Assembly: GCA_039801905.1 (NCBI GenBank)
Contig: JBDRVQ010000004.1
Location: 2,332-66,331 of the forward strand
Length of the DNA: 64,000 nucleotides
Source: a candidate division WOR-3 bacterium
GTDB taxonomy: Bacteria > Hydrothermota > Tepidihabitantia > Tepidihabitantales > JBDRVQ01
Direction of reading: 5' to 3'
Shown: piece by piece, positions 17,332-52,847 of the stretch
Numbering within the stretch: the stretch's first letter is position 1
Layout of the letters: each line of letters starts with the position of its first letter
Made by a program: the position numbers and the translations under genes
The notes under the pieces: model-generated
Database searches by the model: none
What the model was told of the DNA's origin: nothing
What the model saw: the letters and a program-made list of their open reading frames with translations, nothing else

Positions 17332-17336
17332 AGATT

Positions 17337-22404: not shown

Positions 22405-25400
22405 TTATCTTTTGAGGTAGAAGTTAAAAGGGATGGAAACCCAAACCCGAACGGGAATATCCTTTTGCCGGGCGGGACTAAATTTTGCCTGCCGAGCGGC
22501 AACTAATGCCGCCTCATCCAAGGCATCGTTACCCGAAGATTTTAAGATTTGGGCATCAATCACTGAGCCATCAACCTCAACTAATACCTTAACAATTGTC
22601 TGTCCTTCAATCCTTGCCCGGCGAGCCATCTCCGGATATTCGGGTTTGGGAATAGAAATGGGGTTCGGTTTTATCTCCACTTTGGCATAAGGGACAATCT
22701 GGGGTGTGGTCTCTTCTTTTGGGGGAGGGGTTGTCTCAACCGGTGGTTGGGAAACGACCGTTTCCGGTTTTGGTTTTACCGCTGGAATTGTCTCGGTTCT
22801 TCGGGCTAAGGTTTCCGCTCTTGGTCTTTGGGCAAGAGTTTCCGGTTTGATCCTCTCTTCTGGAGGAGTTAATGTCTCTTGGGGAACGAGAGTGGCTTGG
22901 GTTGTACTCTCTGGTTTAGTCGCCGCATAAGATATCTTCTTGGGTTTCGGTCGGGAGGAGAGAGCCAGAAAGAGGGATAATGCCAATACTAAAACTATCC
23001 CTACGCCAATTAAAGCGGTTTTCGGAATTTTTGGCAGTTTCTTTATCTTAGGATAAGCAACTTTTACCTTTTCTTCTTTCACCGGGATTAACTCTTTCCC
23101 TTTACTCAAGATGACTTTTACAACTTCGCCTTCTTTTAAGGTCTCACCAGGCAGGGGGGATTGTTGAATGATAGAATCTTTGGCATAAGTTTCAGAATAC
23201 TCTTCCCCTTCAATAAGCAGTTTAAGGTTCAGGTCCCAAATAATTTTTTCGGCTTCCTTTCTCTTTTTCCCCAATAATGACGGGACAACAATTATCTTTC
23301 TCTCAATCGGTTTTTTTCCTTTACTCAAAATTACCCGAATCGTGCTTCCCTCGGGTAATTCTTCACCCGGGTCTGGGGTTTGACTCAAAATGCAATCTTT
23401 GGGAATTTTCTCGGAGAAGTCCTCCCATTCTATAACCAACTTTAATCCGAGTTTACTTAGTTCTTTTTCCGCCTCGGAAATTGTCTTACCGATGAGGTTG
23501 GGAGATCGGACCGGCTCTTTGCCTTTACTTAATACCACCCGGATCAAGCCCTCAGTCACTACTGCTTCGGGTTCGGGTGACTGCTTGACGATTCTCCCTT
23601 TCGGAATAACGTTATGATATTCCCAAGATTCAGTAACTAACTTTAAGCCTAAATTAGAAACAATCTTTTCCGCCTCGGATAGGGTCTTGTCAATCAGGAC
23701 TGGGGCTTTAAGTGGTCTTTTCCCTTTGCTGATGACGACCTTTACTTCTTCTCCTAATTTCAATTTCGCTCCCGCGGCTGGAGTTTGGCTCATCACTACC
23801 CCGGGAGGCAATTCTGAGAATTCTTCCCCCTCTATTTTAATTTTTAGTCCCAAGGAGGATAGAATCTTTTCTGCCGATTTTTTCTCTTCGTTGATTAAAA
23901 GGGGAACTCTCACCAACTCCGGTCCTTTACTCTCAATGATTTTGAGAATATCACCTTCTTTCAATTCGGCACCGGCTTCGGGGATCTGCTTAAAGATTAT
24001 TCCGGCCGGAAATTCATTGGCGTACTCTTCTTCTATGATTAACCTTAAATTGAGGTCGGCGATAATTTTTTCTGCCTCTTCCTTCTTCTTTCCGATAAGG
24101 GGAGGGACTTTAATAATTTTCACCACCGCTGGTTTCTTGCCTTTACTGAGCACCACTTCCACCACCCCTCCCGCTTTTAAGTTTTTGCCGGACGGTGGAT
24201 TCTGGTCTACGACGGCATTAGCCGGGATATTTTCCGAGAAATCTTCCCTTTCAATTTTTATTTTAAGTCCGAGGCTATTAAGGGTTCTTTCTGCTTCTTT
24301 TAATTCCTTACCGATGAGGTTGGGGACGGCAATTAGTTTTTCCCCTTTACTTAAAATCACTTTTACTGTTTCTCCCTTTCTTAGAGATTCGTTTGGAGAT
24401 GGGGATTGGCGGAGGATTCTTCCCAGGGGGATATCTGGGGAATAATCTTCTCCGGCTACGACCAGTTTCAGTCCTAAGGGGTAGAGGATTTTTATCGCCT
24501 CGCCTTCGGTCTTTTCGGTCAGGTCGGGGACTTTAATGAGGGGGAGACCCTTGCTTAGGGTCACCTTTACACTTTCTCCCTCTTTCAATTGGGTTTCGGC
24601 AGGGGGCGATTGTTTTAGGACGCATCCCTCTTCAATGGTTTCGGAATAGTCTTGATTTTCAACCAGTAATTTTAAGCCCAAATTCTGAAGGAGGCTTTCC
24701 GCTTCCTCCTTTTTCCTGCGGACTAATGATGGGACCTTGACGACTTTCACGACAGGTGGTTTCTTCCCCTTACTCAAAATGACCTTCACCGCCTCCCCGG
24801 ATTTCACTTCCGTCCCCCCGGCTGGCTTCTGGTTAATGATACTATTGGCGGGAACTGTCTCCGAGAAATCTTCCCTTTCAATTTTTATTTTGAGTCCGAG
24901 GCTATTAAGGGTTCTTTCTGCTTCTTTTAATTCCTTACCGATGAGGTTGGGGACGGCAATTAGTTTTTCCCCTTTACTTAAAATCACTTTTACTGTTTCT
25001 CCCTTTCTTAGAGATTCGTTTGGAGATGGGGATTGGCGGAGGATTCTTCCCAGGGGGATATCTGGGGAATAATCTTCTCCGGCTACGACCAGTTTCAGTC
25101 CCAAGGGGTAGAGGATTTTTATCGCCTCGCCTTCGGTCTTTTCGGTCAGGTCGGGGACTTTAATGAGGGGGAGACCCTTGCTCAATATTATCTTTATCGT
25201 TTCCCCTTCTCTCAATTGGGTATTAGGCGCGGGAGTCTGTTTTAAGACCATACCCTCCGGTATCTCTTCGGAATATTCCTCACCTTCAAAGATGATTGTC
25301 AATTTATTTCTTTTTGCTTCCGCTTCCGCTTCCGCTTTTCTTTTGCCGACCAGATTGGGACAAAAGACTAATCTTTTTCCTTTACTTAAAATAACCTTTA

Positions 25401-26877
25401 CACTTTCTCCTTCTTTCAATTGGGTGTTAGGTTCGGGCGACTGTTTTATGATAGAGCCTTCGGGGATGGTTTCGGAATAATCTTCTTTTTCGATCATTAA
25501 TTTCAGGCCCAAGTTAGTTAAGGTCAATTCCGCTTCCTTTTTTGCTTTGCCCACCAGAGGAGGGACCTTAACGATTTTGACGAGCGGAGGTCTCTTTCCT
25601 TTGCTGAGAATAACTTTAATCACCTCCCCGAATTTCACTTCCGTACCCACGGCTGGCTTCTGACTGATGATACTATTGGCGGGAACTGTATCTGAGAAAT
25701 CTTCCCCTTCAATCTTCAGTTTTAAACCCAGAGGAGCAAGGAGTCTCTCCGCTTCCTCTTTCCCCTTACCGATAAGGAGGGGCACGGGGATTGGTTTTAA
25801 CGCCTTCCCTTTGCTGACGATTATCTTTACCGCTTCCCCTTCTCCCATCAATGTCCCGGGTTCCGGGGTTTGGTAGAGGATTAAACCTTCGGGGGTGATT
25901 TCTGAGGATTCCTCCCCTTCCAGAAGGATATTTAATTTCTGGGCATTGGCGATCGCTTCCGCTTCCTTTTTCGTTTTTCCAACCAAGGCTGGGCAGGGAA
26001 TGGTTTTTACCTTTTCCACGATCGGTATCTTTTCCTCGGGGGGTTGGGTTAAGGCGGCGAGAAATTCTTCGCAGGTCTGGAAGCGTTCGTTGGGCTTTTT
26101 GGCTAATGCCTTTTCCACTATCTTTTCCCAGGCGAGAGGGATTTTGGGATTTTTCTCCCTAATTTTCGGGGGTGGGGAGAAGAGGTGCTGCTCTTCTACC
26201 GAAGAGGTCTCGGTCCTCTTGAAAGGTACTTCCCCGGTAGCCATTTCGTAAAGGGTAATTCCCAAAGAATAGATGTCGGAGGATTTATTTAGCGGTTTAT
26301 TTAATATCTGCTCCGGGGACATATAAGGGGTAGTGCCCACCCGAATTTCTGAGGCGAGACCCACTCTTTCCCCACTAATAATCCGGGCGATGCCAAAATC
26401 GGTGACCTTAACCTCCCCCGTGGAGGTGAAGAGGATATTGGATGGTTTTAAGTCAAGATGGAGAACGCCCAGGTTGTGGGCATAACCAACCGCTTCTAAG
26501 ACTTGGCGAAAGATAGAAAGAATCTGCTCTTCGGGTAGCGGTCCTTTTTTAATCAAATCGCTTAGCGTTCTTATTCTTTGCCCATCGGGAAGCGTCATCC
26601 CTTCCAGGTATTCCATTACGATATAATAGACTCCTTCCTCCTGGAAGAAATTATGGATGAGGACGATATGGGGATGTTTTAATTTTGCTTGGGTTTCCGC
26701 TTCTTTGAAGAAACGTTCCTTAAATTTTGGTTCTTTGGTTAAGAAGGTGTGGAGGGTCTTTAAGGCAACCGGTTGTTCTAAGACGCGGTGGATCGCTTTG
26801 TAAACGGTGCCAAAACCACCCTCACCGATTTCTTCAACGATTTTATAATAACCAAAGCCCACAATCCTTTCCGCCAT
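22405..26877 (-). CDS. Ser/Thr protein kinase fused to 14 PASTA repeats, one transmembrane helix, a Pro/Thr-rich spacer and a TonB C-terminal domain
   Basis: Kinase subdomains (GEGGFGTVYKA, HLDLKPSNILF, DFGIA, TTPYMSPE). Fourteen ~70-aa units each ending VILSKG. TM TALIGVGIVLVLALSLFLALSS. P/T/E-rich linker. C-terminal PKPEYPEMARRARIEGQTIVKVLVEVDGSV...SSGNDALDEAALVAARQAKFSPA...PVRVWVSIPFNF matches the TonB_C consensus. Confidence 0.8.
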   Translation of the reverse strand: MAERIVGFGYYKIVEEIGEGGFGTVYKAIHRVLEQPVALKTLHTFLTKEPKFKERFFKEAETQAKLKHPHIVLIHNFFQEEGVYYIVMEYLEGMTLPDGQRIRTLSDLIKKGPLPEEQILSIFRQVLEAVGYAHNLGVLHLDLKPSNILFTSTGEVKVTDFGIARIISGERVGLASEIRVGTTPYMSPEQILNKPLNKSSDIYSLGITLYEMATGEVPFKRTETSSVEEQHLFSPPPKIREKNPKIPLAWEKIVEKALAKKPNERFQTCEEFLAALTQPPEEKIPIVEKVKTIPCPALVGKTKKEAEAIANAQKLNILLEGEESSEITPEGLILYQTPEPGTLMGEGEAVKIIVSKGKALKPIPVPLLIGKGKEEAERLLAPLGLKLKIEGEDFSDTVPANSIISQKPAVGTEVKFGEVIKVILSKGKRPPLVKIVKVPPLVGKAKKEAELTLTNLGLKLMIEKEDYSETIPEGSIIKQSPEPNTQLKEGESVKVILSKGKRLVFCPNLVGKRKAEAEAEAKRNKLTIIFEGEEYSEEIPEGMVLKQTPAPNTQLREGETIKIILSKGLPLIKVPDLTEKTEGEAIKILYPLGLKLVVAGEDYSPDIPLGRILRQSPSPNESLRKGETVKVILSKGEKLIAVPNLIGKELKEAERTLNSLGLKIKIEREDFSETVPANSIINQKPAGGTEVKSGEAVKVILSKGKKPPVVKVVKVPSLVRRKKEEAESLLQNLGLKLLVENQDYSETIEEGCVLKQSPPAETQLKEGESVKVTLSKGLPLIKVPDLTEKTEGEAIKILYPLGLKLVVAGEDYSPDIPLGRILRQSPSPNESLRKGETVKVILSKGEKLIAVPNLIGKELKEAERTLNSLGLKIKIEREDFSENIPANAVVDQNPPSGKNLKAGGVVEVVLSKGKKPAVVKIIKVPPLIGKKKEEAEKIIADLNLRLIIEEEYANEFPAGIIFKQIPEAGAELKEGDILKIIESKGPELVRVPLLINEEKKSAEKILSSLGLKIKIEGEEFSELPPGVVMSQTPAAGAKLKLGEEVKVVISKGKRPLKAPVLIDKTLSEAEKIVSNLGLKLVTESWEYHNVIPKGRIVKQSPEPEAVVTEGLIRVVLSKGKEPVRSPNLIGKTISEAEKELSKLGLKLVIEWEDFSEKIPKDCILSQTPDPGEELPEGSTIRVILSKGKKPIERKIIVVPSLLGKKRKEAEKIIWDLNLKLLIEGEEYSETYAKDSIIQQSPLPGETLKEGEVVKVILSKGKELIPVKEEKVKVAYPKIKKLPKIPKTALIGVGIVLVLALSLFLALSSRPKPKKISYAATKPESTTQATLVPQETLTPPEERIKPETLAQRPRAETLARRTETIPAVKPKPETVVSQPPVETTPPPKEETTPQIVPYAKVEIKPNPISIPKPEYPEMARRARIEGQTIVKVLVEVDGSVIDAQILKSSGNDALDEAALVAARQAKFSPARQKDIPVRVWVSIPFNFYLKR
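24232..25197. repeat. Near-identical tandem direct repeat (period 627 bp, ~335 bp nearly identical) inside the kinase gene, duplicating three PASTA units
   Basis: Sequence 24232-24570 matches 24859-25197 with only 2-3 mismatches. The antisense ORFs 23687-24445 and 24737-25072 end in an identical 70 aa. Confidence 0.8.
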
Positions 26878-26999
26878 AATCTTATCCTACGGAAAGAGTA
26901 GTGAAAAAATTAAAAATGTCAACTATAATTTTCTTTTAATATATTATAATATGAAAAGGGTAAAAATGAAAGTGAAAGAGAAAAAGAGCGGGATAGGGC

Positions 27000-28420
27000 A
27001 AGAGTTAAAAAGTCTACATAAAAGTTTCCACTTGATTCTCACCCTATCCCGGTTTCTTCCTCCCCCAAGGGTAATAGAGAAATCCCATTTAATGGGTATA
27101 GTTGACTCCCAGGAGAGGAAAATACCAAAGAGGAGGGATTTATGCTTAACTTAAATCCCAATAACATAATCCCCTTTGGCGTCGACCCTTCAAGGGCCGA
27201 GTTAGCCATAGTGAGTATAAACGAAAGACCCACCCTTTTCAAGATAAGAAATAACCAAGATGGCCATAGGGAATTCTTGAAGAGAGTGGTGAAGATGAAA
27301 GAAGAGACAGGAAAGACTCCGGTCTTTGCCATTGAAGGAAACTCCCCCTTTGTTCTTGGTTTTACATTCCAGGCTTATCGTCTTGAATTCCCTACTTATG
27401 AAATAACGCCTTATCATCTTCATGAAGTAAGAAACCTTCTCCTCGGAGAAGACCAAAACGATTATCGGGATGCCAAGGCCGCAGCAATGGCAATAACCCA
27501 ATTACCTCAATTGTTAAAACCGGTAAAAAATGATTTGCTCTGGTTCGCCTTGAAAGTTTTAGTTTCTACCCGCCTCCGCTTAGTAAGAGACCAAACAAGG
27601 GACATTAACCTCCTTCATAACCATTTGAGCCAAATCTGGGGACCAGTTTATAAAAAGTTCTTTCCCATCCTTAACTCACCCCAAGCCCTTACCTTTTTTT
27701 CCACCTTTCCCACCCCGGTTGGCGTTTACGGAGCAGAAGAAGAGGTCTTAAATCTACTACAGGCGCAAGGATTACTTTACTATCGGGTAAAATGGGGTAA
27801 AAAGAAGGTAAAAGAGATAAAGGCAGAAGTTAAAGAGATGGACTGGAAAAGAGATGAGTATTTAACCGAACTTGGTCTAATAGTTAAGTCCTTTGCCACT
27901 GATGCCTTAAAGAGACTTCGGAGGATTAAAGAGATTGAAGAGAGGTTAAAAGAAAAGGCGAAGGGATGGAAAGAGGGAGAGATTTCTTTACTGAGGACAA
28001 TTCCTGGTTTTGACTGGGTTTTAGCCTGTTCGGTGGTGGTATTGATTGGTGATTTATCTCGGTTTGAGAGGAAAGCGGATTTTATTGCTTATTGCGGATT
28101 AGTCCTTTGTAGTAAAGAGAGTGGGAAAAAGAAAGGGAAGAAGAAGAGGAAGCGAAGGAATAAATTACTCTCCCATCTTTTTTACCAGGCGGCATTGGCT
28201 TCTTTGCGGAGTAGCGAGTTATCAAGGAAGTATTACCAGAAGAAGTTACAGGAAGGAAAGAAAGGGAAGCAAGCGATTAGGGCATTAGCAAAAAAGTTAG
28301 CAGAGATTACTTATGCGGTTCTTAAAAATAAGGAGCCCTATGATGAAACAAGGCTCCTGAATTAACTATTGACTTTACATAGAGAATCAAGGAGAAGAAT
28401 CTATTAATCGGACAGAATGA
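27000..28420 (+). mobile_element. IS110-family insertion sequence; boundaries approximate
   Basis: Contains an IS110-type DEDD transposase. The family lacks terminal inverted repeats, so the ends cannot be set from this copy alone. Confidence 0.4.
27142..28365 (+). CDS. IS110-family transposase
   Basis: N-terminus FGVDPSRAELAIVSI resembles the DEDD_Tnp_IS110 GIDVSK motif. C-terminus TIPGFDWVLACSVVVLIGDLSRFERKADFIAYCGLVL is the IS116/IS110/IS902 domain. GAGGAGGG lies upstream. Confidence 0.75.
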   Translation: MLNLNPNNIIPFGVDPSRAELAIVSINERPTLFKIRNNQDGHREFLKRVVKMKEETGKTPVFAIEGNSPFVLGFTFQAYRLEFPTYEITPYHLHEVRNLLLGEDQNDYRDAKAAAMAITQLPQLLKPVKNDLLWFALKVLVSTRLRLVRDQTRDINLLHNHLSQIWGPVYKKFFPILNSPQALTFFSTFPTPVGVYGAEEEVLNLLQAQGLLYYRVKWGKKKVKEIKAEVKEMDWKRDEYLTELGLIVKSFATDALKRLRRIKEIEERLKEKAKGWKEGEISLLRTIPGFDWVLACSVVVLIGDLSRFERKADFIAYCGLVLCSKESGKKKGKKKRKRRNKLLSHLFYQAALASLRSSELSRKYYQKKLQEGKKGKQAIRALAKKLAEITYAVLKNKEPYDETRLLN

Positions 28421-28520
28421 TTAAAATCTATCCAACTTTTAGTAAAAAATCTCTTGCTATTTTCTTTTGTTTAATTAGAATAGTAAATAAACCTTTTGGT
28501 TAATTTTTTGTCTAAATATT

Positions 28521-36534: not shown

Positions 36535-37156
36535 TTTCCCTCCGGCTCAATACCACCCTGGTGATTACTTCTTTCACTTCATTCATCTCCACTCTTTTCC
36601 CTAAGATATTTTCCATTGCGGTCATTGGCAAATTCTTTTTGCCGCAAGGATGAATGAAGGAGAAGGGTTTTAAGTCATTTAAGACATTGAGGGCAATCCC
36701 GTGATAGGTGACCTTATCTTTGAGGGCAAAGCCGAAGGAGGCAATCTTTTTCCCTTGGACATAAATTCCGATATTCCTTTCGTCCGCGGTCGCAGCAATG
36801 CCAAAGATTTTTAAGGTTTGGATTATCACCCCTTCCCAATAGTTAATAAATCTTCTAATCCCAGCCATCCCTTCCTTTAAGAAGAAGATGGGATAGATTA
36901 AGAGTTGACCGAACCCGTGGTAGGTGATATCACCACCCCTTTCGGTGCGGTAGAAAGAGATTCCCATCGCCTGCAACTTTTCTACTGAGACCAAAAGATT
37001 TTCCATCTTCCCATTCTTTCCTAAGGTAATTACCGGAGGATGGATGACAAAAATTAAGGTATCGGGAATCTCGTCCCTTACCCTTTGCTGATGAATCTCC
37101 TTTTGGAAATCTTCTGCCAGTTTATATTCACAAACTCCTAAGTCAATAATCTTCAT
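36515..37156 (-). CDS. lipB: Octanoyltransferase (lipoyl(octanoyl) transferase) LipB
   Basis: RGGDITYHGFGQLLIYPI and the catalytic-Cys region HPCGKK. 213 aa. Adjacent to lpd. Confidence 0.75.
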   Translation of the reverse strand: MKIIDLGVCEYKLAEDFQKEIHQQRVRDEIPDTLIFVIHPPVITLGKNGKMENLLVSVEKLQAMGISFYRTERGGDITYHGFGQLLIYPIFFLKEGMAGIRRFINYWEGVIIQTLKIFGIAATADERNIGIYVQGKKIASFGFALKDKVTYHGIALNVLNDLKPFSFIHPCGKKNLPMTAMENILGKRVEMNEVKEVITRVVLSRRENGRETS

Positions 37157-38559
37157 AAGGTATGGATACTCTTTCCTAAAATTTTTTCTAAGGTCTCGGA
37201 GATGATTTCGGAAAGGGTGGGATGGGGGTGAATTAAGTTCTCAGTCTCTTCTACCTTTATCTTATTCGATAAGAAAAGGGTAATCTCACTAATTAACTCC
37301 GAGGCAAGAGGGGAGAGGAGAGAGAAGCCTAAGATTTCCCCGGTTTCAGAGAGAACCACCTTGGCGAAACCTTCGGTCCGGCCCAAGGTATAGGCGCGAC
37401 CGATAGCACTTAAAGGAACTCGGTAGACTCTTGGGTTTAACCCTTTTTCTTTTGCCTCCCTTTCCGAAAGACCAACTACCGCCACTTCGGGGTCGGTATA
37501 GATGCAATTGGGAATGAATCGCTTATAATCTTTGGGAAAACTTCTCCTTCCCAAGGCGATAATCTCCGCTAATTTTTTTCCTTCAAACATCGCCTTATGG
37601 GCTAAAAGGGGTGGAGAAGAGCAATCACCAATCGCAAAGACATTCTTTAAGTTGGTCTGAAAATTCTCATCGGTGATGATAAATCCCCGGGCATCTTTTT
37701 CTATACCAACTTTTTCTAAGCCTTCGGTATTCGGCTTTCTGCCGATTGCGACCAGGACCTTTTCCGCCTCAAGGCGCAGTTTTTTCCCTTCCCTATCTTT
37801 TATTAAAAAAAGTTTCTCATCTTCTCTGCCCAAAATCTGAGAGGAGAGATAGAATTTTATCCCTTCTTGCTCTAAGATTTTTTGGAGGCGCTGGGCAATC
37901 TCCTCATCAATTCCGGGGAGGATTTGATTTGTAATCTCAATAACTATCACCTCACTTCCCAATCGGGAATAGATGGTTGCCATCTCCAAGCCAATTGCCC
38001 CGGCGCCAACCACCAAAAGGCTCTTAGGAATCTCTTCGGGCTGGAGAAGGAAGTCGGAATTGACTACGCTTTTGCCATCAAAGGGAATTTCTTTTAAGGC
38101 ACTTGGGAGAGAACCGAGGGCTAAGACGATATTTTGGGCGGAGATTACCTCTTTACTATTTTTTAATCTAACCTTCCCTTCACTAATAATCTCTCCCTCT
38201 TCCCGAATCACCTCACAATTTCTCTTTTTTAAGAGGTATTCAATGCCATTGGTGAGCCGATTCACATTTTTGAAGACCCAGCCTCTCATCATCGGGATAT
38301 CAATTGCCGGCGGGGAGAATTTAATACCCGCAGAATCTAACTCCGCACTCCGTCTTAAAATCTCAGTTAAGTGGAGATAGGCTTTGGTTGGGATACAGCC
38401 TAAATTGAGACAGACGCCACCAATCTTTTCCTTTTCAATCAGGGCGACCTTTTTCCCCAATTGACCGGCACGGAGGGCGCAGGTATAACCCGCTGGTCCA
38501 CTCCCGATAATGAGAATATCAAACATAATGAATATTAACGAGAAATTAAAAAGTTGCAA
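37153..38559 (-). CDS. lpdA: Dihydrolipoyl dehydrogenase
   Basis: FAD motif IIGSGPAGY, redox-active disulfide GGVCLNLGCIPTK, NAD motif VVGAGAIGLE, and the C-terminal HPHPTLSE interface. Confidence 0.85.
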   Translation of the reverse strand: MQLFNFSLIFIMFDILIIGSGPAGYTCALRAGQLGKKVALIEKEKIGGVCLNLGCIPTKAYLHLTEILRRSAELDSAGIKFSPPAIDIPMMRGWVFKNVNRLTNGIEYLLKKRNCEVIREEGEIISEGKVRLKNSKEVISAQNIVLALGSLPSALKEIPFDGKSVVNSDFLLQPEEIPKSLLVVGAGAIGLEMATIYSRLGSEVIVIEITNQILPGIDEEIAQRLQKILEQEGIKFYLSSQILGREDEKLFLIKDREGKKLRLEAEKVLVAIGRKPNTEGLEKVGIEKDARGFIITDENFQTNLKNVFAIGDCSSPPLLAHKAMFEGKKLAEIIALGRRSFPKDYKRFIPNCIYTDPEVAVVGLSEREAKEKGLNPRVYRVPLSAIGRAYTLGRTEGFAKVVLSETGEILGFSLLSPLASELISEITLFLSNKIKVEETENLIHPHPTLSEIISETLEKILGKSIHTL

Positions 38560-38945
38560 GATTATTTTTAAGGCGACATAAAAGTCGCCTATTAAAAGAA
38601 GGGTCTTTCTTTTAAGTTTCGCATTTCCAATAACTTAATTATTTTAGGTTAAATTGAAGTGCACCCCACCACCGCCTCCTTCACCACCCCCCTACCCACT
38701 TCTTATCCGGCATTTTATCCCTAATTTAAGGGGGGATTTTATCTCCAATTAAAGGTCCAATCTCTTCCCCAATTTCTTCCCGGAAAAAAGGGATGGTTTT
38801 ATCCCCAATCTCTTCTCCTGAAAAAGGGAGAAGAAAATCTCTAATTACCTTCCCAATTTCCGGTCTAATTTTGGGCGGGAAAGAATTGGGAGTGAAGTAT
38901 TGAGTTTTTTGGTTTTCCTGCCTCACGTCGAGCGCGTATTAGGTC
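38545..38945 (+). repeat. Copy B of the ~400-bp repeated upstream element
   Basis: GGCGAC-ataaaa-GTCGCC at 38572-38589. TCTCCAATT, CCCCAATTTC, TCTCTAATT and GGTCTAATTTTG boxes. TCTTCTCC-tgaaaaag-GGAGAAGA hairpin. Aligns with copy A. Confidence 0.7.
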
Positions 38946-38947
38946 TC

Positions 38948-38975
38948 TTGACAAAAGACTTTTCTTGGGTATAAT
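38948..38975 (+). promoter_or_regulatory. Sigma70-like promoter: TTGACA, 16-nt spacer, TATAAT, with the ATG 7 nt downstream
   Basis: ttgacaaaagacttttcttgggtataat, then agaagt, then the ATG at 38982. Confidence 0.5.
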
Positions 38976-38981
38976 AGAAGT

Positions 38982-39782
38982 ATGAAAGATAAAGAGATAA
39001 AAGGAGGGGAGATGCTTAAAAAACTATCTTCAATTTTTATATTGCTATTAGTAAATAGCCGATACCTCTTGGCAAATCCTCAACATCCGAGAACCCGGGA
39101 GCAGGTAAAAGTACCTTTTGATGTCAATGAAGTTATTGAGCGGGTTTCCCACAATAAGATGAGGGAAAGGGAGGCTCTGAACGGTGAATTTCTGATTGAT
39201 ACCACTATCGTTTATGGTTCAGCACCGTATGAGCAACGTTCTCCTTCAGTTGCCTTTGATGGCACAAACTATCTTGTGGTTTGGCAAGACACCCGGAGGG
39301 GTGAGTATGACATTTATGGTGCCAGAGTAAATCCGTCTGGAATTGTTATTGATTCGTTTGCGGTATCCGTGCAGACTGGAGACCAATATTCCCCAGCATT
39401 AGCCAGAGGCTTAGGAAATCAAGTTCTCATAACCTATTCCGGTTGGACTGGTGAATATCAAGGTAGAACTTATAACACCTATCGCATCTGGGGCAAGTTC
39501 TATCCATTTATTGGAATTGAACAGGACCGCTATCCGCCTTTATCTGGCCGCTCACCACTAAAAATCTATCCCAATCCGGCAAGTTCCGTTCTCTGTGTCC
39601 ATTGCCCGTTTTCCGTGAAAGGGATAGAAATCTATGATGTTTCCGGAAAGTTAATATCTGTTTACCGCTCTCCGTTCTCCCTTAAAGAAAAAGAGGTCAA
39701 AATCTCACTTAAAGGAATTAAGGACGGGGTCTATTTTATAAAAATTGGTAAAGAGGCTAAAAAGTTAATAGTGAAGAGGTAA
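38982..39782 (+). CDS. Secreted hypothetical protein with a T9SS C-terminal sorting domain
   Basis: Signal peptide LKKLSSIFILLLVNS. C-terminus LKIYPNPASSVLCV...IEIYDVSGKLI...DGVYFIKIGKEAKKLIVKR. Confidence 0.5.
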   Translation: MKDKEIKGGEMLKKLSSIFILLLVNSRYLLANPQHPRTREQVKVPFDVNEVIERVSHNKMREREALNGEFLIDTTIVYGSAPYEQRSPSVAFDGTNYLVVWQDTRRGEYDIYGARVNPSGIVIDSFAVSVQTGDQYSPALARGLGNQVLITYSGWTGEYQGRTYNTYRIWGKFYPFIGIEQDRYPPLSGRSPLKIYPNPASSVLCVHCPFSVKGIEIYDVSGKLISVYRSPFSLKEKEVKISLKGIKDGVYFIKIGKEAKKLIVKR

Positions 39783-40004: not shown

Positions 40005-41699
40005 ATGGAGGTGTGTATGCGGCGGCATTTCATTTCATTTCTTTTTTTCTCTCTGCTCTTTGCTTACCGCTACGCGGTGGTGGTAAGTGAGGCAACTTAT
40101 AATCTGCCGGAATGGCGAATGGTGGTTGATTCTCTCGCAAATAAACATTCCGCAGCGGTATTCCGTTGGACTTCCAGTCCCCGGGATCTCTTACCCCAAC
40201 TTGTTTCTTATTTTCCCGATTATGTTGCCTTTGTCGCCCGCCCAGTAAGTGAGGTGAATGCCAATTTCGTCCGGACTTGTCATCAGATGACCAGGGAGTT
40301 TGATTCCGACCCTTATGGGGATGCGGTTTGGGGGATAATCACTGGTTATACTGCGGATGATGCCTTAAGGGTCATCCGGTTTGACAGTCTCCTGATAAGA
40401 ACCTTTCTCGGAGGGACAAATTGCACCTGGGGTGACTGGCTTGAGAAGGGAATCGCTACTTATGAGGCGGAATATAACCGAATTCGGTTCCATTTTCCGG
40501 ACCGGAGAATTCTTGACACCATCTGGCCGGAGAGATGTCCTACTGATAGATGTACCCTTTTGGTCAATTATTTGAATTCCGGATTTAACGACTCGGTTCC
40601 GGGTAGGCCCAGGATTTCCGGACCGGTTGATATATTCGTCACCAGTGGCCATGCCGACCAACATACCTGGCAACTCCATTATCCATCTTCTGGTTCGGAG
40701 GGTTTTTTCCGTTCTTCTCTTGGTCAATTGCGCGGTGACCCTTACAGTGGCAGTTCCCGCAATGTCAATTCTTCTAATCCGAAAATTTACTTTCCGGTGG
40801 GAAATTGTCTGATGGGCGATGTCTCGGATATGGACTGTATGGTCTTAGCCTGGTTCCATTCCGCCGGGGCGATTCAGATGACCGGTTATATTGTGACGAC
40901 CTGGTATGGTTATATGCTCTGGGGACTCCCGGCTTATTTCCATTTGCTCCAAAATCGCCATAATTATGCTCAGGCTTTCTATCTCAATAATCAGGCGTTA
41001 ATCTTTGACCGGATTAATAATACTCCCGGAACCAATCCCTCTGGTCTAGACTATGATAAGGATAATGTGGCTTTTTATGGGGACCCAGCCTGTCAGGTAA
41101 AAATCTATCCGGTGCGTGAACCTTGGTATTCGGAATCAATTGCGGTGCGACCCGGAGAAAGGGTGGATACCTTTTTGGTTAAAATCCGAGCCAACTACGA
41201 CTCTTCTGCCTTGGGTTTCAGTGGAGTATCGGGAAATCGCCATCCGATTGTCTTCTTACCGGTGAGGGTGGAAAGTGTTTATGTGGAAACGACCGATGCC
41301 CACCAGGTAGTGATTACGGATAATTTTGTCCTTCTTTATGTCTGGTATCAGGGGCAGAGGAGATTTTTGCGGGGCGAAGAGAGGTTTGTCCGATTCACCG
41401 CTAAGCCGATTCCTGTTGCCTTAGCCGAGAGAAGGGATGAGGGGAAGGTTTTCTGGATCACCTCAGGAAAATTCCTTTTTGGTGAAGAGCCGAAACTCTC
41501 TTTTCTTTTAGCCAAAGATGGGGTTTACCATCTGGCGGTTTATAACCAAGAGGGGAGACTCCTTTGGCAGAAAAGGGAAAAGAAGAGAAGGGGTCTTTAT
41601 TCCCTTTCCCTGCCTGAGGGATTAAAATCCGGTGTCTACTTCTTAATCGGGAGGTTTGGTAAGGAAGTGATAAGAGAGAAGTTTCTCCGGCTGCGATGA
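40005..41699 (+). CDS. Secreted protein with a T9SS CTD; possible clan CD-like cysteine peptidase
   Basis: Signal peptide. Possible His and Cys motifs (DIFVTSGHADQH and PVGNCLMGD). C-terminus LKSGVYFLIGRFGKEVIREKFLRLR. The peptidase assignment is weak. Confidence 0.45.
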   Translation: MEVCMRRHFISFLFFSLLFAYRYAVVVSEATYNLPEWRMVVDSLANKHSAAVFRWTSSPRDLLPQLVSYFPDYVAFVARPVSEVNANFVRTCHQMTREFDSDPYGDAVWGIITGYTADDALRVIRFDSLLIRTFLGGTNCTWGDWLEKGIATYEAEYNRIRFHFPDRRILDTIWPERCPTDRCTLLVNYLNSGFNDSVPGRPRISGPVDIFVTSGHADQHTWQLHYPSSGSEGFFRSSLGQLRGDPYSGSSRNVNSSNPKIYFPVGNCLMGDVSDMDCMVLAWFHSAGAIQMTGYIVTTWYGYMLWGLPAYFHLLQNRHNYAQAFYLNNQALIFDRINNTPGTNPSGLDYDKDNVAFYGDPACQVKIYPVREPWYSESIAVRPGERVDTFLVKIRANYDSSALGFSGVSGNRHPIVFLPVRVESVYVETTDAHQVVITDNFVLLYVWYQGQRRFLRGEERFVRFTAKPIPVALAERRDEGKVFWITSGKFLFGEEPKLSFLLAKDGVYHLAVYNQEGRLLWQKREKKRRGLYSLSLPEGLKSGVYFLIGRFGKEVIREKFLRLR

Positions 41700-43633
41700 A
41701 AGAGAAATCTTTTCTTTTAGGGAGTTTCATTTTTATCTCTCTTCTTTTTGCCGCGGATTGGGAACTGATTGATTCGGTTAAGTTGCGGACAATCATTCCC
41801 CCAAAGAAAGGCTTTTATATCGTTTTTGACGACCCGATTGAGAGCCTTCTTGTCTATCTTCCTTATGATTCCTTAACCCCTCGGGCAAAGGAGGCGGTGG
41901 CAAGGTCTCCTTCCTGGTTGAAAAGTGATTTGGCGGATAACCTCCGGCGTCTCAGCCCGGAGCGGCAGGATCTTTATGCCAATCTCATTCTTTCGGCTTC
42001 CTCTCCCTTTGTTGACGAGATTTCCTTTCAGGTTGCCCATATCCCTTTTTCTATCTTAGGTTCTGACAATTTCTATCCCCAACTTTTAATTGAGAATGTA
42101 ACCGACCTTTATAAGATTGATTCCCTCTTAGATTACGCCGAGATTTTAGACTATGGGGTTCCGGGTCTGGATACCGATTACTATTCCACAATTCGTTATC
42201 GGATAAGAAACGAATCCGGTGATACGATAGAAGTTATTCAACCAAAGGAGATTTACTATTGGTATATTTTACACCCCAAAATTTCCCGCGAGTTTTCAAC
42301 ATATGTTGATTCTCTAACCGGTGAACCATTACCCCCTCCCCGGGGTAAATTCTGGCGGAACTATCTTTTTTATCATAGTGATCCGGGTTATCCAATCTTA
42401 AAGGACTATCTCTTAGGAATTAGAACCCTTTGGAATTCTTTGAGGAATGATACCGCCAATAACGGGGCGATTGGGGCGATAAATAATTGGCTGAGGCGGG
42501 TGATGGAGTTCCGGAGTCCCCAGCGCCGAACTTATCAGCCGGTGCAAATCTATACCCAACACCACGGGACTTGCACCGAATGGGGAATCTTGACCCCAGC
42601 CGTTGCCCGCGCCGGTTTAATCCCTTGTGTTCAGACCCGAGCCTACGGCAATAATCACTGCTGGAATGAGTTCTACGAAAGGCGCTGGGTGCAGTGGGAA
42701 CCGGTGAATAAGATGATCAATGATACAACGAGATACGATCCGGCGTGGTGGAATTTGGCAGTCGCTAATAACTGGCGGGGTGATGGTTTTTGGTGGACGG
42801 TGAGTGAAAGATATACCCCTCATTGCACATTGACGGTAAAGGTTTTGGACCGGGATAGTTCTCCGGTTGACGGCGCCCGGGTTCTGATTGCTGGTGGTCC
42901 CCAGCCGGTGAATTGGTTCTGTGCCTTTGCTTATACCAACCAAAATGGGGAAGTGAGATTCACCCTTGGTGACACCAATAGTTATGATTGTGCGATTGAG
43001 AGTGAATTGGGTAATATCTCCTTTACCCGGGTGATTAATCAGGCAAGAGCGAATACCCATTACCAAATAGTTTTTAACCTTTCTGGTTCAATGCCCCACT
43101 TAAACCTCACTTCCGATACCTTGCCCCAGAATCCACTCAACCGCTACCGGGTGGAGATTTCTCTTCGGGTGGAGAACGAGATAATTTTTGGTTTTCATCC
43201 GGATGATAATTCTTTCTTTGCCCAGAGAGGCGAATTGGGTAATGTTCACTTTTTTATCGCTGATTCTTCAAACTTCTTTCGCTATTTAAGGGGTGAAAAT
43301 TTCCGAGCATTTCTCATTTCCGAGGGCATCAGGCAACTTGATACCTCTTTTATCTTTCCTACTGACCAACCTTATTATTTAATCTTCGCTAATGACGAGC
43401 GGATTGGCAATGGTGTTGCCTTAACGCTCACGGTGCGATTATACCGAGTAGTAAGCGGCGCGGAAGAGAGAAAGGAGAGTTCTATTCCTCCTCACTTCCC
43501 ATTTTCCTTAAGGAAAGGTTTAAAGGTTTTTAATATTTTGGGGAAGCGGGTCAAGAATCCCGAAGAAATCCGGACCGGGATTTATTTTATATTAGAGAAA
43601 GGGGGAAGGTGGAAAAAGATAATTTTGCGCTGA
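41696..43633 (+). CDS. Secreted transglutaminase-like domain protein with a T9SS CTD
   Basis: The Cys-His core GTCTEWGILTPAVARAGLIPCVQTRAYGNNHCWNEFY fits the transglutaminase-like superfamily. C-terminus ...TGIYFILEKGGRWKKIILR. The start overlaps the upstream stop (ATGA). Confidence 0.55.
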   Translation: MKEKSFLLGSFIFISLLFAADWELIDSVKLRTIIPPKKGFYIVFDDPIESLLVYLPYDSLTPRAKEAVARSPSWLKSDLADNLRRLSPERQDLYANLILSASSPFVDEISFQVAHIPFSILGSDNFYPQLLIENVTDLYKIDSLLDYAEILDYGVPGLDTDYYSTIRYRIRNESGDTIEVIQPKEIYYWYILHPKISREFSTYVDSLTGEPLPPPRGKFWRNYLFYHSDPGYPILKDYLLGIRTLWNSLRNDTANNGAIGAINNWLRRVMEFRSPQRRTYQPVQIYTQHHGTCTEWGILTPAVARAGLIPCVQTRAYGNNHCWNEFYERRWVQWEPVNKMINDTTRYDPAWWNLAVANNWRGDGFWWTVSERYTPHCTLTVKVLDRDSSPVDGARVLIAGGPQPVNWFCAFAYTNQNGEVRFTLGDTNSYDCAIESELGNISFTRVINQARANTHYQIVFNLSGSMPHLNLTSDTLPQNPLNRYRVEISLRVENEIIFGFHPDDNSFFAQRGELGNVHFFIADSSNFFRYLRGENFRAFLISEGIRQLDTSFIFPTDQPYYLIFANDERIGNGVALTLTVRLYRVVSGAEERKESSIPPHFPFSLRKGLKVFNILGKRVKNPEEIRTGIYFILEKGGRWKKIILR

Positions 43634-49674: not shown

Positions 49675-50499
49675 CTAAAAATTAGGGGTTTCTTTAAGCT
49701 TTTTAATTTTCTGCCAGACCTTTGACTTATTTTGATATTCCGGGTAATTATGGTAGATATATTCTAATAGAGTTAAGAGGGGATATTTACCATATTTTAA
49801 TTTAATTTCTTCAATCCCCTTAATAATCTCTTTATCCACACCTTTTATTAACCCCTTAGCAAATTTTATCCCTTTTTCGGTTAATCGGTATTCAGTGAGG
49901 GTTTTATCCGGTTCAAAGAAGTCGGTAATCTCTTTTTCCATTAGAGAGAGGCGGGTCTTTTTCGCCACCTTTTCTATGAAACCCTCTTCCTGGAGGAGGT
50001 TTAGGTCTTCGTATAACCTTTTATCAAAAGGACCGAGCCGGTGGGGGGTAAAGGAATAGAATTCCTTGAAATAATGGGAGAGTTGTTTCTCCTTTGCCAA
50101 TAAGAAGAGGTATTTCATCAATCGGGTAATACCCATTATCTTCTTTCCCAGGGCAAAGAGGAGGAGGATTAAGAAATCTGCTCTGCGGGTTAGAGGGAGG
50201 ACGACTTTCTCCTCCACCTTCTTTTGCTTTAACTCCGCCAATTTCTTTTCTATCCTCTGCCAGACCCTCTTTTTAGTATCTTCGGGCATTGGGGGCGAGG
50301 AAAAAGTTTGCCATAAGAAGAGAGAGAATTTAATCTCTTCTTTCAATCTTTCCTTTTCCTTTTTGGTCAATTTTGGATATCGGGCAAGGAACTTTTCTAC
50401 CAAAACCTGGTCCGTTAATCTCTTTTTCTCTTTCTTATAAAACCTATCAAACTCCCCAACCAGTGAAGATAGCCAATCACTTTTCATCTTTCCCTCCAA
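49675..50499 (-). CDS. Hypothetical protein with a DUF4065/Panacea-like (SocA-type antitoxin) C-terminal region
   Basis: GITRLMKYLFLLAKE...FTPHRLGPFDKRLYEDL resembles the LQKLLYFA...GP..VY pattern. Weak. Confidence 0.3.
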   Translation of the reverse strand: MEGKMKSDWLSSLVGEFDRFYKKEKKRLTDQVLVEKFLARYPKLTKKEKERLKEEIKFSLFLWQTFSSPPMPEDTKKRVWQRIEKKLAELKQKKVEEKVVLPLTRRADFLILLLFALGKKIMGITRLMKYLFLLAKEKQLSHYFKEFYSFTPHRLGPFDKRLYEDLNLLQEEGFIEKVAKKTRLSLMEKEITDFFEPDKTLTEYRLTEKGIKFAKGLIKGVDKEIIKGIEEIKLKYGKYPLLTLLEYIYHNYPEYQNKSKVWQKIKKLKETPNF

Positions 50500-51067
50500 T
50501 AAAGTTATACCTCTTTCTTAACCAGGGGGAATTTTTTAAGGCATTTCGGAATTCCTTTTTTGCTCGGAATAAAATCTTTTTCACATTCTCTTCTCTTTTC
50601 CCTAACTTCTGGGCAATCTCTTTTATCTCGTAACCTTCTAAATAATATAAAATTAAGACGGTCCCGTAATTCTTGGGTAATTTTGAGAGTGCCTTAATCA
50701 ATTCTTCCCAATCCCTTTTCTGCCCGAGTGAATCTTCGGGGTTGGGATTATCCCTGGCTAAGGAGAATGCTTCTTTGGGAGATTTTTCTATTGCCTCTAA
50801 ACTTTCTCCCTTTGTCCTTTCCCGGTGGATTTCCGTGATTTCATTCCTGGCGACAATAAAGAGCCAACCGGCCAGAGTGCCACTTCTTAGTGTGGGGAGG
50901 AGGGAGAGGAACTTTTCAAAGGTGCGGGCGACAACCTCTTCGGCATCGTCTTGATTTTTGAAGACCTTGAAGGCATAGGCATAGATTAGCGAGCGGTAGT
51001 GCTCATAGATTTTAGCGATAGCGGATTCGTCCCCTTCTTTCGCCCTTTCTAATAAATCATCCGGCAT
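50477..51067 (-). CDS. ECF-type sigma-70 family RNA polymerase sigma factor
   Basis: Region 2 (IYEHYRSLIYAYAFKVFKNQDDAEEVVARTFEKF) and region 4 (LPKNYGTVLILYYLEGYEIKEIAQKLGKREENVKKILFRAKKEF). Confidence 0.7.
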   Translation of the reverse strand: MPDDLLERAKEGDESAIAKIYEHYRSLIYAYAFKVFKNQDDAEEVVARTFEKFLSLLPTLRSGTLAGWLFIVARNEITEIHRERTKGESLEAIEKSPKEAFSLARDNPNPEDSLGQKRDWEELIKALSKLPKNYGTVLILYYLEGYEIKEIAQKLGKREENVKKILFRAKKEFRNALKNSPWLRKRYNFIGGKDEK

Positions 51068-51069
51068 CT

Positions 51070-51372
51070 TTAAGTGAAATCAATTCTTTGGTAGTCTTCT
51101 TCGGTTAAGCCGTAGCGTTTTAATATCTCAAAATTCTTCAAGAGGGTTGCCCTTTCCTGGTGATGGTCTTCGGGGTGATAGATAATAAGAGAATCCGCAT
51201 AGGTATTTAATAGAGTTAAGAGTTCTTCTTTTTTCATCTTCTCAATTTTGAGATTAAGGGCGTATTCTTCAATTAACTCTAAGAGATTATTAAGTGCCTC
51301 GGCGGCAGTGATTAAAAGGATTGGCTTGTCGGGGTTAATCCCTAAATTTTTCAAAAAATTTTTGGTATCCAT
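51070..51372 (-). CDS. Hypothetical small protein
   Basis: 100-aa ORF between the REase and the sigma factor. No motifs. Confidence 0.3.
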   Translation of the reverse strand: MDTKNFLKNLGINPDKPILLITAAEALNNLLELIEEYALNLKIEKMKKEELLTLLNTYADSLIIYHPEDHHQERATLLKNFEILKRYGLTEEDYQRIDFT

Positions 51373-51393
51373 CTAAATTGCCCCCTAATTCCT

Positions 51394-51996
51394 TTAAGTT
51401 AGAAAATACCTCTTAGACCTGGTCTTTAATAATCCTTTTTTCCAGTAGAGGATATCCTTAGGTAAATCGGTGATAAATTTTACTATTCCCCCTAATTTCG
51501 TCTTCTCATTTGTGGTATAAAGGGAATCCAAGAAGGTGGAAGATAGTTCTCTCTCCTTTGTTGGTTTCTCTTCACTACCCAATTCTGATTGCCACTTTTC
51601 CTTCTGTCCCCGACCCGCATCCGAAGTGACAAGAACAAATTTTATTCGGGTGAGAATCCGGAAGAGCAAACTATGGAAAAGTGTTTCGGTAAGTCTTCCG
51701 TGAAAACTTGTCTTACAACTTATCACTACTATCGGATAATTATCACTAGCGTCAACGGCGACTAAATCAATATCTCCCCATATCCTCTCCTCCTTTGATT
51801 CCTTGGTAGGGATTGAGAGATATTTATAGAGTTCTGGATATCTTTGGGGGTTATTTTCAATCTCTTTCCCCCATAAGACCTTTACGCCATCTTTTTCTAA
51901 TTCTCTATTAAGATAGTTAGCCACCCAATTCTCCAACTCCTTGCCACTTTTTGTGACAAAACTTTGCCTCTCTTCTACGGTTTTATAAGGTTTCAT
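51394..51996 (-). CDS. Putative type II restriction endonuclease (PD-(D/E)xK-like)
   Basis: Immediately downstream of the MTase with a 4-bp overlap. GDIDLVAVDASDNYPIVVISCK resembles a PD...D/ExK core. Confidence 0.4.
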   Translation of the reverse strand: MKPYKTVEERQSFVTKSGKELENWVANYLNRELEKDGVKVLWGKEIENNPQRYPELYKYLSIPTKESKEERIWGDIDLVAVDASDNYPIVVISCKTSFHGRLTETLFHSLLFRILTRIKFVLVTSDAGRGQKEKWQSELGSEEKPTKERELSSTFLDSLYTTNEKTKLGGIVKFITDLPKDILYWKKGLLKTRSKRYFLT

Positions 51997-52847
51997 AAAA
52001 CTTTGACCGTTTCTAATATCAGTTGATTTATTTTCGCTTCCTTGATCAGTCTCTGTTTGGCAATTTTACAATAATTTTCGTCAATCTCTACCCCAATTCC
52101 TTTTCTCTTCGTTAAGACACAGGCGATGAGGGTTGTGCCACTGCCTAAAAATGGGTCAAGGACGGTGTCACCAATAAAACTGAATAGTTTGATACACCTT
52201 TTTGGCAATTCCAAAGGGAAAGGGGCGGGATGGCCAACTCGTTTTTTGCTCTCACCGGAAAAATTCCAGACGCCATTGGTCCAAGATAAAAACTCCTCTT
52301 TCGTGATATCGGTCTTACCGTGATTTTTCTTCTTCCATTTCTCTTTATAAAGAATGACAATCACCTCTACGGGGGCGATGACATAGGGGGCACTTGGTGA
52401 AAGCCAAGAACCCCAAGCGGTACGGCGGGAAATATTCCCTTCGTTCCAGATGATGGTGGAATGATACTTAAAACCAATTCTTTTTGCCAAGGTGGTAATA
52501 TCGGCATAGACCGATTGCTGTCCCCCCTTATTTTTATCTAAGGGGATATTTAAACAAAATCGCCCATCATCCTTTAACACCTCGTAGCATCTTTTGAGCC
52601 ATTTCTCGGTCCATTGGAGATAGTCCTCATAAGAGATTTTGTCGTCATAGAAGTTATAACTGATGTCAACATTATAGGGGGGAGAGGTGATAATCAAGTC
52701 AATCGTTTCTTCTTTCAGGTAAGTAGTTTTCAGAAAATCATCGTGGTAAATGGTCACTTCTGGGGTTTGGAAATAAATGGGAGAACTGAGATCTCGGATT
52801 AGAGATTTTTTTCTCTTTCCAGAAGAAGAATAATTTTTCTTTTTCAT
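51993..52847 (-). CDS. DNA methyltransferase of the amino-methyltransferase beta class (N4-cytosine or N6-adenine)
   Basis: Motif IV TSPPYN is near the N-terminus and motif I LDPFLGSGTT is near the C-terminus, the circular-permuted beta order. Confidence 0.8.
   Translation of the reverse strand: MKKKNYSSSGKRKKSLIRDLSSPIYFQTPEVTIYHDDFLKTTYLKEETIDLIITSPPYNVDISYNFYDDKISYEDYLQWTEKWLKRCYEVLKDDGRFCLNIPLDKNKGGQQSVYADITTLAKRIGFKYHSTIIWNEGNISRRTAWGSWLSPSAPYVIAPVEVIVILYKEKWKKKNHGKTDITKEEFLSWTNGVWNFSGESKKRVGHPAPFPLELPKRCIKLFSFIGDTVLDPFLGSGTTLIACVLTKRKGIGVEIDENYCKIAKQRLIKEAKINQLILETVKVL

Follow-up and report, generated by a model that had tools for sequence, protein, structure and literature searches.

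What kind of element occupies the spacer at 38545-38981 of the DNA analysed here, a 64,000-nt stretch of contig JBDRVQ010000004.1 from a candidate division WOR-3 bacterium (referred to below as the window), is the question raised by this locus. The spacer lies between lpd (37153-38526, − strand, start codon ATG at 38526), which diverges together with lipB on its left side, and an operon of three genes. Its first gene (39012-39782) encodes a Por_Secre_tail protein with a C-terminal domain (CTD), and its start was placed at 38982 or at 39012 behind a GGAGG site; a Transglut_core protein gene is located further to the right at 41696-43633. An earlier note made from the nucleotide sequence (the sequence-only reading) had described the same flanking genes, and had regarded the whole spacer as copy B of a module repeated within the window. 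The spacer did contain such a copy, which aligned with copy A at 16949-17292 (+), upstream of tldD-pmbA-lonC, in a whole-window repeat search and pairwise alignment. However, the conserved part was confined to 38571-38912 (+), ~345 nt with sharp boundaries at both ends, and the TTGACA-16-TATAAT stretch at 38948-38975 (+) is a separate σ70 promoter. This promoter matches the consensus at 12 of 12 positions, belongs to the downstream CTD-protein gene, lies outside the module, and is not conserved between paralogues. Copies A and B were the sole two found in the window by a profile search; they are about 75-79% identical, with a mean column identity of 79% and no indel across ~290 columns. The analyses described below place the module in a lineage-restricted family of self-contained non-coding elements, previously undescribed, in a small group of WOR-3. 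The family is new and selectively maintained, it has an unusual phased architecture of 20 × 12 nt, and small RNA (sRNA) genes are the most likely identity of its members.

The larger part of copy B is a lattice of 20 units of 12 nt (240 nt) at 38661-38900 (+). Units 1-4 (38661-38708) form a C-rich tract, which includes CCGCCTCC and reads GAGCCCTACCAC CGCCTCC..., and the later units carry CTAAT or CCAAT at their first five positions, with weights of.66 (C),.55 (T),.54 (A),.50 (A), and.68 (T). Four strings quoted in the sequence-only reading were located as described, namely TCTCCAATT at 38742-38750, CCCCAATTTC at 38767-38776, TCTCTAATT at 38838-38846, and GGTCTAATTTTG at 38862-38873. Six of the seven paralogues have exactly 20 units, and L040 (sequences of relatives are referred to by such L numbers) has 17 units and is therefore 36 nt shorter. 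The distances from box to box were all multiples of 12 (range, 12-108) in every copy, including the distant members, and the self-similarity of the lattice peaked at lags of 12, 24, and 36 (z = 7.9, 6.1, and 7.4, respectively). The pattern CYAAT-N7-CYAAT occurred 10 times in the window compared with 1.04 ± 0.97 expected; seven of these 10, all in + orientation, were inside the two modules. In-phase clusters of CTAAT were confined to modules in ~500 kb of mixed loci. The lattice contains 29% C and 16% G, and C occupies position 1 in 66% of the units; the lattice of copy A has 59 C residues versus 46 G residues. CCTCC was present within the C-tract of five of the seven copies, and GGAGG-type ribosome-binding sites are used by the same genomes.

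The left boundary of the module is a hairpin or palindrome, H1 (AGGCGAC-ATAAAA-GTCGCCT; 38571-38590, +), with a 7-bp stem and a 6-nt loop. The conservation between aligned copies begins exactly at H1, and the bases preceding it vary among copies (TTAG, TAAG, GAAG, TCAG, GTAG, and others). H1 was identical in seven of the eight first-found copies. The sole substitution seen in H1 was a C to T change in L050, which yields a G·U pair on the + strand and an A·C mismatch on the − strand. A different hairpin, GGACA-TATG-TGTCC, was found at the position of H1 in L051. In L004, the loop of H1 was inverted (TTTTAT) with the palindrome kept; a GTCATAAAAGT segment just upstream of the inverted loop (L004 1900-1950) forms together with it an alternative hairpin of 10-11 bp, and the change resembles the outcome of template switching or inversion at this site. 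H1 lacks a following T-run on both strands and was left unflagged by a terminator scan; thus, it is not a canonical intrinsic terminator.

H1 is followed by an A/U-rich hairpin, H2 (UUAAAAGAAG-GGUC-UUUCUUUUAA; 38592-38615, +), consisting of a purine arm and a pyrimidine arm. H2 forms in eight of nine copies, and its single G-C pair shifts register between copies. It has seven G·U pairs on the + strand and none on the − strand, and the summed minimum free energies (MFEs) were −24.4 (+) and −15.3 (−) kcal/mol. The AT-rich linker at 38616-38660 (+) contains the conserved block TTCCAATAACTTA (38625-38637) and, shortly ahead of the lattice, a −10-like TAAATT (38650-38655). The blocks T(T/C)CAATAACTTA and TA[AG]A[ATC]T were kept in all copies of the main family; we take the former to resemble the consensus of integration host factor (IHF), WATCAANNNNTTR, and TAAATT to resemble a −10 hexamer. 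A simple σ70 scan revealed no promoter-like site inside the linker (38616-38660). At its right end, the lattice forms a third hairpin, P3, from its last units (arms 38849-38861 and 38879-38892, +), followed by GAGTTTTTTGG. On the + strand, 86.9% of the cells in P3 were paired versus 40-61% with slid partners, and the mirror value on the − strand was 70.2%; in a shuffle control, which is a weak one with seven related sequences, 7 of 500 shuffles reached 86.9%. The summed MFEs of P3 were −95.7 (+) and −64.9 (−) kcal/mol, and G·U pairs occurred on the + strand only. The conservation between paralogues ends at the right boundary TGAG-TTTTTT-GG (38901-38912, +; T-run at 38905-38910), and of the aligned copies, all but L001 and L040 have GGTTTTT. 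In addition, the hairpin highlighted in the sequence-only reading, TCTTCTCC-TGAAAAAG-GGAGAAGA, exists at 38811-38834 (+) with 8 perfect pairs (9 bp in strain L060), but it is a property of copy B that the other paralogues lack.

An exact search with the 18-nt hairpin core against one genome per species gave 42 matches, six of which were in the WOR-3 metagenome-assembled genome (MAG) JBDRVU01. All six carry the whole module, and the remaining 36 were unrelated. The loci of relatives were reached via homologues of TldD, Lpd, and a 564-aa protein, and nine further members beyond the window copies were obtained, all in related WOR-3 assemblies. The paralogues are 62-79% identical, and 5 of 7 have a length of 343-345 nt. 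The window itself is 99.5% identical to a contig of the WOR-3 MAG GCA_039801945.1, and copy B recurs in L049 and L060, which belong to the same species as the window. An orthologue of copy A was present upstream of tldD in L050 (TldD 92% identical), and a diverged, inverted member was at that position in L051 (TldD 73% identical). The presence of the module upstream of tldD is thus polymorphic, with the window, L050, and L051 having it and L058, L059, and L052 lacking it. A further member was found in L058 downstream of a convergent gene, and the diverged member of L052-55 is a more regular array made up of 17 GGTCTAATTCTC-like units. When the window was compared with the module-less spacer of L058 in search of insertion boundaries, no homology was found in between. 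The short-read contigs L057, L061, and L062 stop inside or beside a module, as would be expected of a dispersed repeat. Chance matches alone were obtained in a metagenome scan with the hairpin plus CCACCGC, and no similarity to the module was found in plasmid and phage collections. In L184 (7590-7660, −), where no module is present upstream of the transglutaminase-like operon, TTTTCAATAATTTA and TTTTCAATAACTTACCACC represent the linker block of the module joined to CCACC; a DnaA-box oligonucleotide of Thermotoga maritima likewise contains AACTTACCACC (PMC10316083).

Copy A and its L050 orthologue were compared to estimate the constraint on the module. The module was 95.9% identical between them and the lattice 97.5% (6 differences at 239 sites). 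In the adjacent tldD, the identity was 79.6% at third positions (92 of 450 differ) and ~95.5% at first plus second positions; the third positions of pmbA were 61% identical, and the non-coding flanks were 92-93% identical with indels. The difference between the lattice and the tldD third positions was significant (Fisher's test, p = 2e-12), and the orthologous pair evolves ~8 times more slowly than neighbouring synonymous-type sites. Over the 150 nt of tldD closest to the module, the third-position identity was 80%, with no gradient of identity; a recent recombination tract is therefore not the explanation. Because the lattice evolves more slowly than the tldD third positions, these comparisons indicate purifying selection and a function of the module at the level of its sequence. 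Since the constraint extends to positions that differ between paralogues, each copy is constrained individually, and such retention between orthologues is what is expected of sequence-specific RNAs. The relatives of copy B were either strains of 99% identity (L049, L060, and L062) or a contig ending at the module (L061), so that the selection test rests on copy A.

The surroundings of the members were examined at 11 sites. The gene on the H1 side points away from the module in nine of them and is co-directional in two (L002 and L040); on the opposite side, seven sites have a co-directional gene and four a convergent one. The members occupy divergent spacers (about half of the sites) and tandem spacers in either orientation. 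Their neighbours vary (lpd, the CTD-protein gene, tldD, an S8 peptidase gene, a tRNA gene, gyrB, and rimP-nusA), with none in common, and elsewhere the gene that the module precedes is a tRNA gene, one for a small membrane protein (with gyrB opposite), or one with rimP-nusA opposite. In seven of the nine main-family copies, a strong σ70 promoter of the next gene starts 10-60 nt past the T-run, outside the conserved unit. These contexts exclude a leader or 5′ untranslated region and an operator dedicated to secretion-cargo operons, and they suggest an autonomous unit.

We predict that the modules are a family of independently transcribed, weakly structured, pyrimidine-rich sRNA genes on the + strand, with a probability of about 0.35. 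The hairpins are better on the + strand despite its being G-poor, and these features, together with the pyrimidine bias, CCUCC, and the U-run, favour an RNA of the + strand. In addition, the free orientation relative to neighbours fits an autonomous gene rather than a leader or an operator. The RNA would start at or just upstream of H1, or else at the −10-like TA[AG]A[TC]T that precedes the C-tract, and would carry two 5′ hairpins. CCUCC of the C-tract could pair with GGAGG ribosome-binding sites, and the ~10 CUAAU/CCAAU boxes in their strict 12-nt register might serve as a multivalent platform on which an RNA-binding protein assembles as an oligomer or a filament. P3 and the U-run would close the 3′ end. 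Such an RNA could act in the manner of protein-titrating or anti-Shine-Dalgarno sRNAs, with the paralogue-specific sequence giving each copy its own target set.

Several results weigh against this prediction. No convincing conserved promoter was found, and there is no −35 sequence before either candidate start. A canonical terminator was also not found, because the T-run is ~12 nt past P3 and is absent in L001 and L040; P3 could not be recognised in L051 and L058, which are diverged members. The folding z-scores of whole modules were −0.1 to −2.2 on both strands, barely beating shuffles, and copy B alone reached about −4.0 to −4.7 owing to its private TCTTCTCC/GGAGAAGA hairpin. The covariation terms of RNAalifold were slightly unfavourable on both strands. 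This weak folding, together with the unfavourable covariation, indicates that the product is not a compact structured RNA. Finally, indels in the lattice are multiples of 12 only, and this fact, the strict register, and the loop inversion in L004 that keeps the palindrome suit an array of DNA-binding sites at least equally well.

No match to Rfam 15 was detected at the gathering threshold in the whole window; below the threshold, copies A and B gave ≤21 bits to unrelated families with thresholds of 39-97 bits. A long-range helix between the C-tract and the G-rich 3′ end was modest (84.5% versus ≤70% with slid partners on the − strand; 68% versus ≤47% on the + strand) and was set aside. A σ54 promoter was rejected by eye because no GG is present at the right distance from TTGC. 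A G-quadruplex on the − strand was likewise rejected, since the four G3 runs were not conserved on inspection of the aligned copies.

The possibility that the module acts as DNA is nearly as likely as the RNA-gene prediction. It would then be a nucleoprotein element that organises or insulates promoter-containing spacers, tentatively composed of H1 as a 7-6-7 palindromic site, the linker as an IHF-like bend, and the lattice as a 12-bp iteron- or centromere-like array, or else the C-tract as a cluster of DnaA-box-like repeats. H1 would be the site for a dimeric regulator or a recombinase-like protein, and a protein would polymerise on the lattice. The register of exactly 12 bp in every member, the indels in multiples of 12, the L004 inversion, and the likeness of T(T/C)CAATAACTTA to the IHF consensus all accord with such an array, and constant-period direct repeats, which iteron- or centromere-like arrays require, are present, with 20 units in six of seven copies. 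The placement also agrees with it: divergent spacers make up about half of the sites, and seven of the nine main-family copies end 10-60 nt before a strong σ70 promoter. On the other hand, the G·U pairs that occur in H2 and P3 on the + strand only have no obvious use in duplex DNA, orthologues retain the variable lattice positions beyond the box cores, and no gene for a candidate binding protein is linked (no Rep, ParR, or TubR-like neighbour). With regard to DnaA, the invariant CCCTACCAC matches eight of nine positions of the T. maritima DnaA box ACCTACCAC (PMC10316083), which may not be the box of WOR-3, and two to three degenerate repeats follow it. However, the orientation of the box to the AT region mirrors T. 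maritima oriC, and there are many copies per genome. Moreover, CYTACCAC occurs seven times in the window versus 1.6 expected (none of 100 shuffles reached seven), mostly inside genes, the exceptions being the occurrences at 17044 (in a module) and 32966 (in a convergent spacer).

An improbable alternative is that the module is a selfish or decaying interspersed repeat, similar to miniature inverted-repeat transposable elements (MITEs) or repetitive extragenic palindromic (REP) sequences, with no host function and with a sequence that reflects its origin from a tandem 12-mer. Multiple copies, polymorphic presence upstream of tldD, contigs that break at modules, and the H1-like loop of the IS110 element described below would all be natural for such a repeat. 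However, no terminal inverted repeats or target duplications were seen by eye, and the two ends, AGGCGAC... and ...GGTATTTGGTTTTT, are unrelated. The fixed length of paralogues that are old, and the ~8-fold slower evolution of the orthologues relative to synonymous-type sites, also disagree with decay.

Even more improbable is a strand-specific Rho-loading (rut) site or transcriptional insulator, in which H1, H2, and the T-run would assist pausing. In rut sites, C exceeds G over at least 78 nt of little structure with C every 11-13 nt, and 12-13 nt are needed to span adjacent Rho subunits (PMC6407284, PMC6144790). The lattice agrees with this description in its composition (29% C and 16% G), in C at position 1 of 66% of the units, and in its low folding z-scores, and the members in L002 and L040 directly follow a co-directional gene. 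At nine of the 11 sites, however, no transcription comes in from the H1 side, and the excess of C over G is ordinary, being surpassed by the antisense strands of window genes. Besides, the conserved motif is CTAAT and not merely YC, and constraint at every position is not needed for rut.

The sequence-only reading had proposed that the boxes are bound by an extracytoplasmic function (ECF) sigma or sigma-like factor and co-regulate operons for cargo of the type IX secretion system (T9SS). This proposal is now very improbable. It drew on the position of copy B before the Por_Secre_tail gene, to which can be added that a divergent gene for an S8 peptidase with the same tail is 470 nt away from copy A, and on the ECF sigma (50477-51067) and the protein with sigma region 2 (55074-56144) encoded in the window. 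However, copy A precedes tldD-pmbA-lonC, other members are near tRNA, gyrB, rimP-nusA, or convergent genes (the members in L004, L051, L052, and L058 are among those that contradict the cargo-operon context), and the L051 member is inverted. The orthologous transglutaminase-like operon in a 77% relative (L184-187) has no module upstream. The promoters just downstream of the modules conform to the σ70 consensus and are not of the ECF type. Enrichment of the boxes upstream of other genes was not found in the 64-kb window, an outcome that the proposal itself had named as speaking against it. The varied neighbours and free orientation thus argue against a dedicated T9SS-cargo operator. As for the promoters of the adjacent genes, that of tldD (17303-17339; TTGACA-17-TAAAAT with ATG 5 nt later) and that of lpd (38558-38524, −; TTGCAA-17-AATATT with ATG 4 nt later) both look leaderless, and the latter is kept in the 74% relative L061.

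Protein coding is the least credible explanation: a tetrapeptide-repeat protein (xSNF/xPNF on the + strand; xxIR/EEIG on the − strand) or a short P/T-rich leader peptide from GTG before the C-tract might be imagined because two frames per strand are unusually open and one public assembly annotates an ORF, but the frames are broken, no start is conserved, differences are flat over codon positions, and no Pfam match exists. The openness arises because all CTAAT boxes are in one phase modulo 3, which leaves two frames per strand nearly stop-free. No frame was open in all copies, in-frame stops were either conserved or scattered, and no start codon was conserved. Pairwise differences averaged 0.27, 0.28, and 0.30 at the first, second, and third codon positions, respectively, indicating no codon-position bias. 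The 66-aa antisense open reading frame (ORF) at 38726-38926 (−), a coding sequence in the public assembly L049 and not in L060, had been dismissed in the sequence-only reading as a reflection of the repeats, and our results agree: it contains stops in three of seven paralogues, has no conserved start, and, like the other module frames, has no match in Pfam. The leader peptide was rejected on the lack of codon-position bias and on a substitution in L050, deduced from the alignment, that makes a stop in frame. A scan of viral contigs for three phased CTAAT boxes gave unrelated AT-rich tandem repeats only, of which L107 (IMGVR_UViG_3300009702_000023) was coding. In L107, 31 units of GGTCTAATCTnG at 994-1370, a 12-nt array of the GGTCTAAT type, truly encode xSNL tetrapeptides in a 424-aa DUF6745 protein. 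This look-alike demonstrates that the motif alone proves nothing, and the case against coding in the modules rests on their broken frames.

A type III antitoxin array was also considered. ToxI-like arrays are ~36-nt tandem repeats located directly upstream of a ToxN/AbiQ-type toxin gene. A 36-nt super-period was indeed seen in the lattice (lag 36, z = 7.4), but the genes downstream of the modules are unrelated and variable, and this candidate was rejected.

An IS110-family insertion sequence (IS) is present at 26943-28433 (DEDD_Tnp_IS110 plus Transposase_20), with its transposase gene at 27142-28365 (+). Strain L060 of the same species lacks this element, which was assembled alone as contig L183. 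Its 5′ non-coding end folds as a long stem with the apical loop AAAAAGUCUACAUAAAAGUUUCCAC (27012-27036). The loop is identical to H1 at 16 of 20 positions, including an exact 10-nt run, ACATAAAAGT, and the right flank of the IS is AACTTTTAGT. The loop may be a candidate bridge-RNA guide aimed at H1-like sequences (cf. PMC11208160).

As to the remaining features of the window, the gene at 22405-26877 (−) encodes a PknB-like Ser/Thr kinase of 1490 aa, which has at least 14 PASTA domains and carries a TonB_C domain at its C terminus; the L051 version has 1080 aa. This gene accounts for the repeat families D3-D10 of 201-219 nt. The same protein had been considered as a multi-S1-domain RNA binder matching the 20 units of the lattice, and it was rejected in that role when it proved to be the PASTA kinase. 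The Por_Secre_tail protein after copy B has 256 aa in the window, 630 aa in GCA_039801945.1 (L049 316-2208), and 880 aa in GCA_965649285.1 (L060 6873-9515). L049 contains extra internal segments of ~95 nt, which are 84-86% identical to 39228-39322 of the window and lacking there; the cause is either variation in the number of repeats or a collapse during assembly. Long tandem repeats (periods, 156 and 126 nt) at 52980-54022, 56572-57406, and 58360-58695 lie largely in or beside − strand ORFs (52911-54434, with no Pfam match, and 56307-57518) and probably encode repeat proteins. A second TldD/PmbA pair and a type IV pilus cluster (pseudopilins, PilM, secretin, and prepilin peptidase) are located within 2369-5150 and 5202-13708. 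The region 50477-52847 encodes, besides the ECF sigma, a BsaWI-like restriction enzyme with an N4/N6 methylase, and the protein encoded at 55074-56144 has 356 aa with sigma region 2 only.

To our knowledge, WOR-3 has no cultured, genetically tractable members, and its regulatory RNAs and chromosome-organising sites are almost undescribed. The module offers a concrete handle on lineage-specific regulation, since it is compact, recognisable by sequence, present in multiple copies, and slower-evolving than the adjacent proteins. Its unusual strict 12-nt register predicts one binding unit per 12 nt. Because the module breaks short-read assemblies and spawns spurious ORFs (the 66-aa and 105-aa public "genes"), recognising it would also improve annotation. 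A bolder and unlikely proposal is that sRNAs or RNA/DNA scaffolds with a fixed lattice of 20 × 12 nt constitute a new class, in which one oligomer subunit would bind per 12 nt, the seven variable bases of each unit would specify distinct partners, and H1 may be a natural target of the bridge RNA of the resident IS110 element.

Among known systems, interspersed bacterial repeats are represented by REP/BIME, ERIC, BOX, and Correia/NEMIS. The module is similar to these in being dispersed, intergenic, lineage-specific, and equipped with hairpins, and BOX is also modular with an internal unit of variable number. However, the module is much longer than REP and has a low copy number, high divergence, a fixed length, and purifying selection between orthologues. 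It shares with rut sites a poorly structured strand in which C exceeds G, with C or YC approximately every 12 nt, but unlike them it keeps a specific pentamer. Plasmid iterons, ParR-parC, and TubR-tubC are direct-repeat arrays bound by polymerising DNA-binding proteins. The module resembles them in its direct repeats of exact period, adjacent AT-rich segment, and palindrome; it differs in its at least 6-8 chromosomal copies, its lack of a linked rep or par gene and of plasmid or phage matches, its conservation at only five of 12 positions, and its strand-asymmetric structure signals. Finally, the sRNAs of the Csr/Rsm/Crc type are comparable in size (~100-400 nt), in having several paralogues per genome, and in being autonomous intergenic genes with many short motifs. 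CsrB and RsmZ carry GGA motifs and CrcZ carries A-rich motifs, to which CsrA (or Hfq) binds, and Rsm/Csr genes are preceded by a palindromic activator site, sometimes with IHF. In contrast to these sRNAs, the module has no Rfam match, its motif is CUAAU/CCAAU instead of GGA or ARN, and the motif is displayed in a rigid 12-nt register instead of in hairpin loops.

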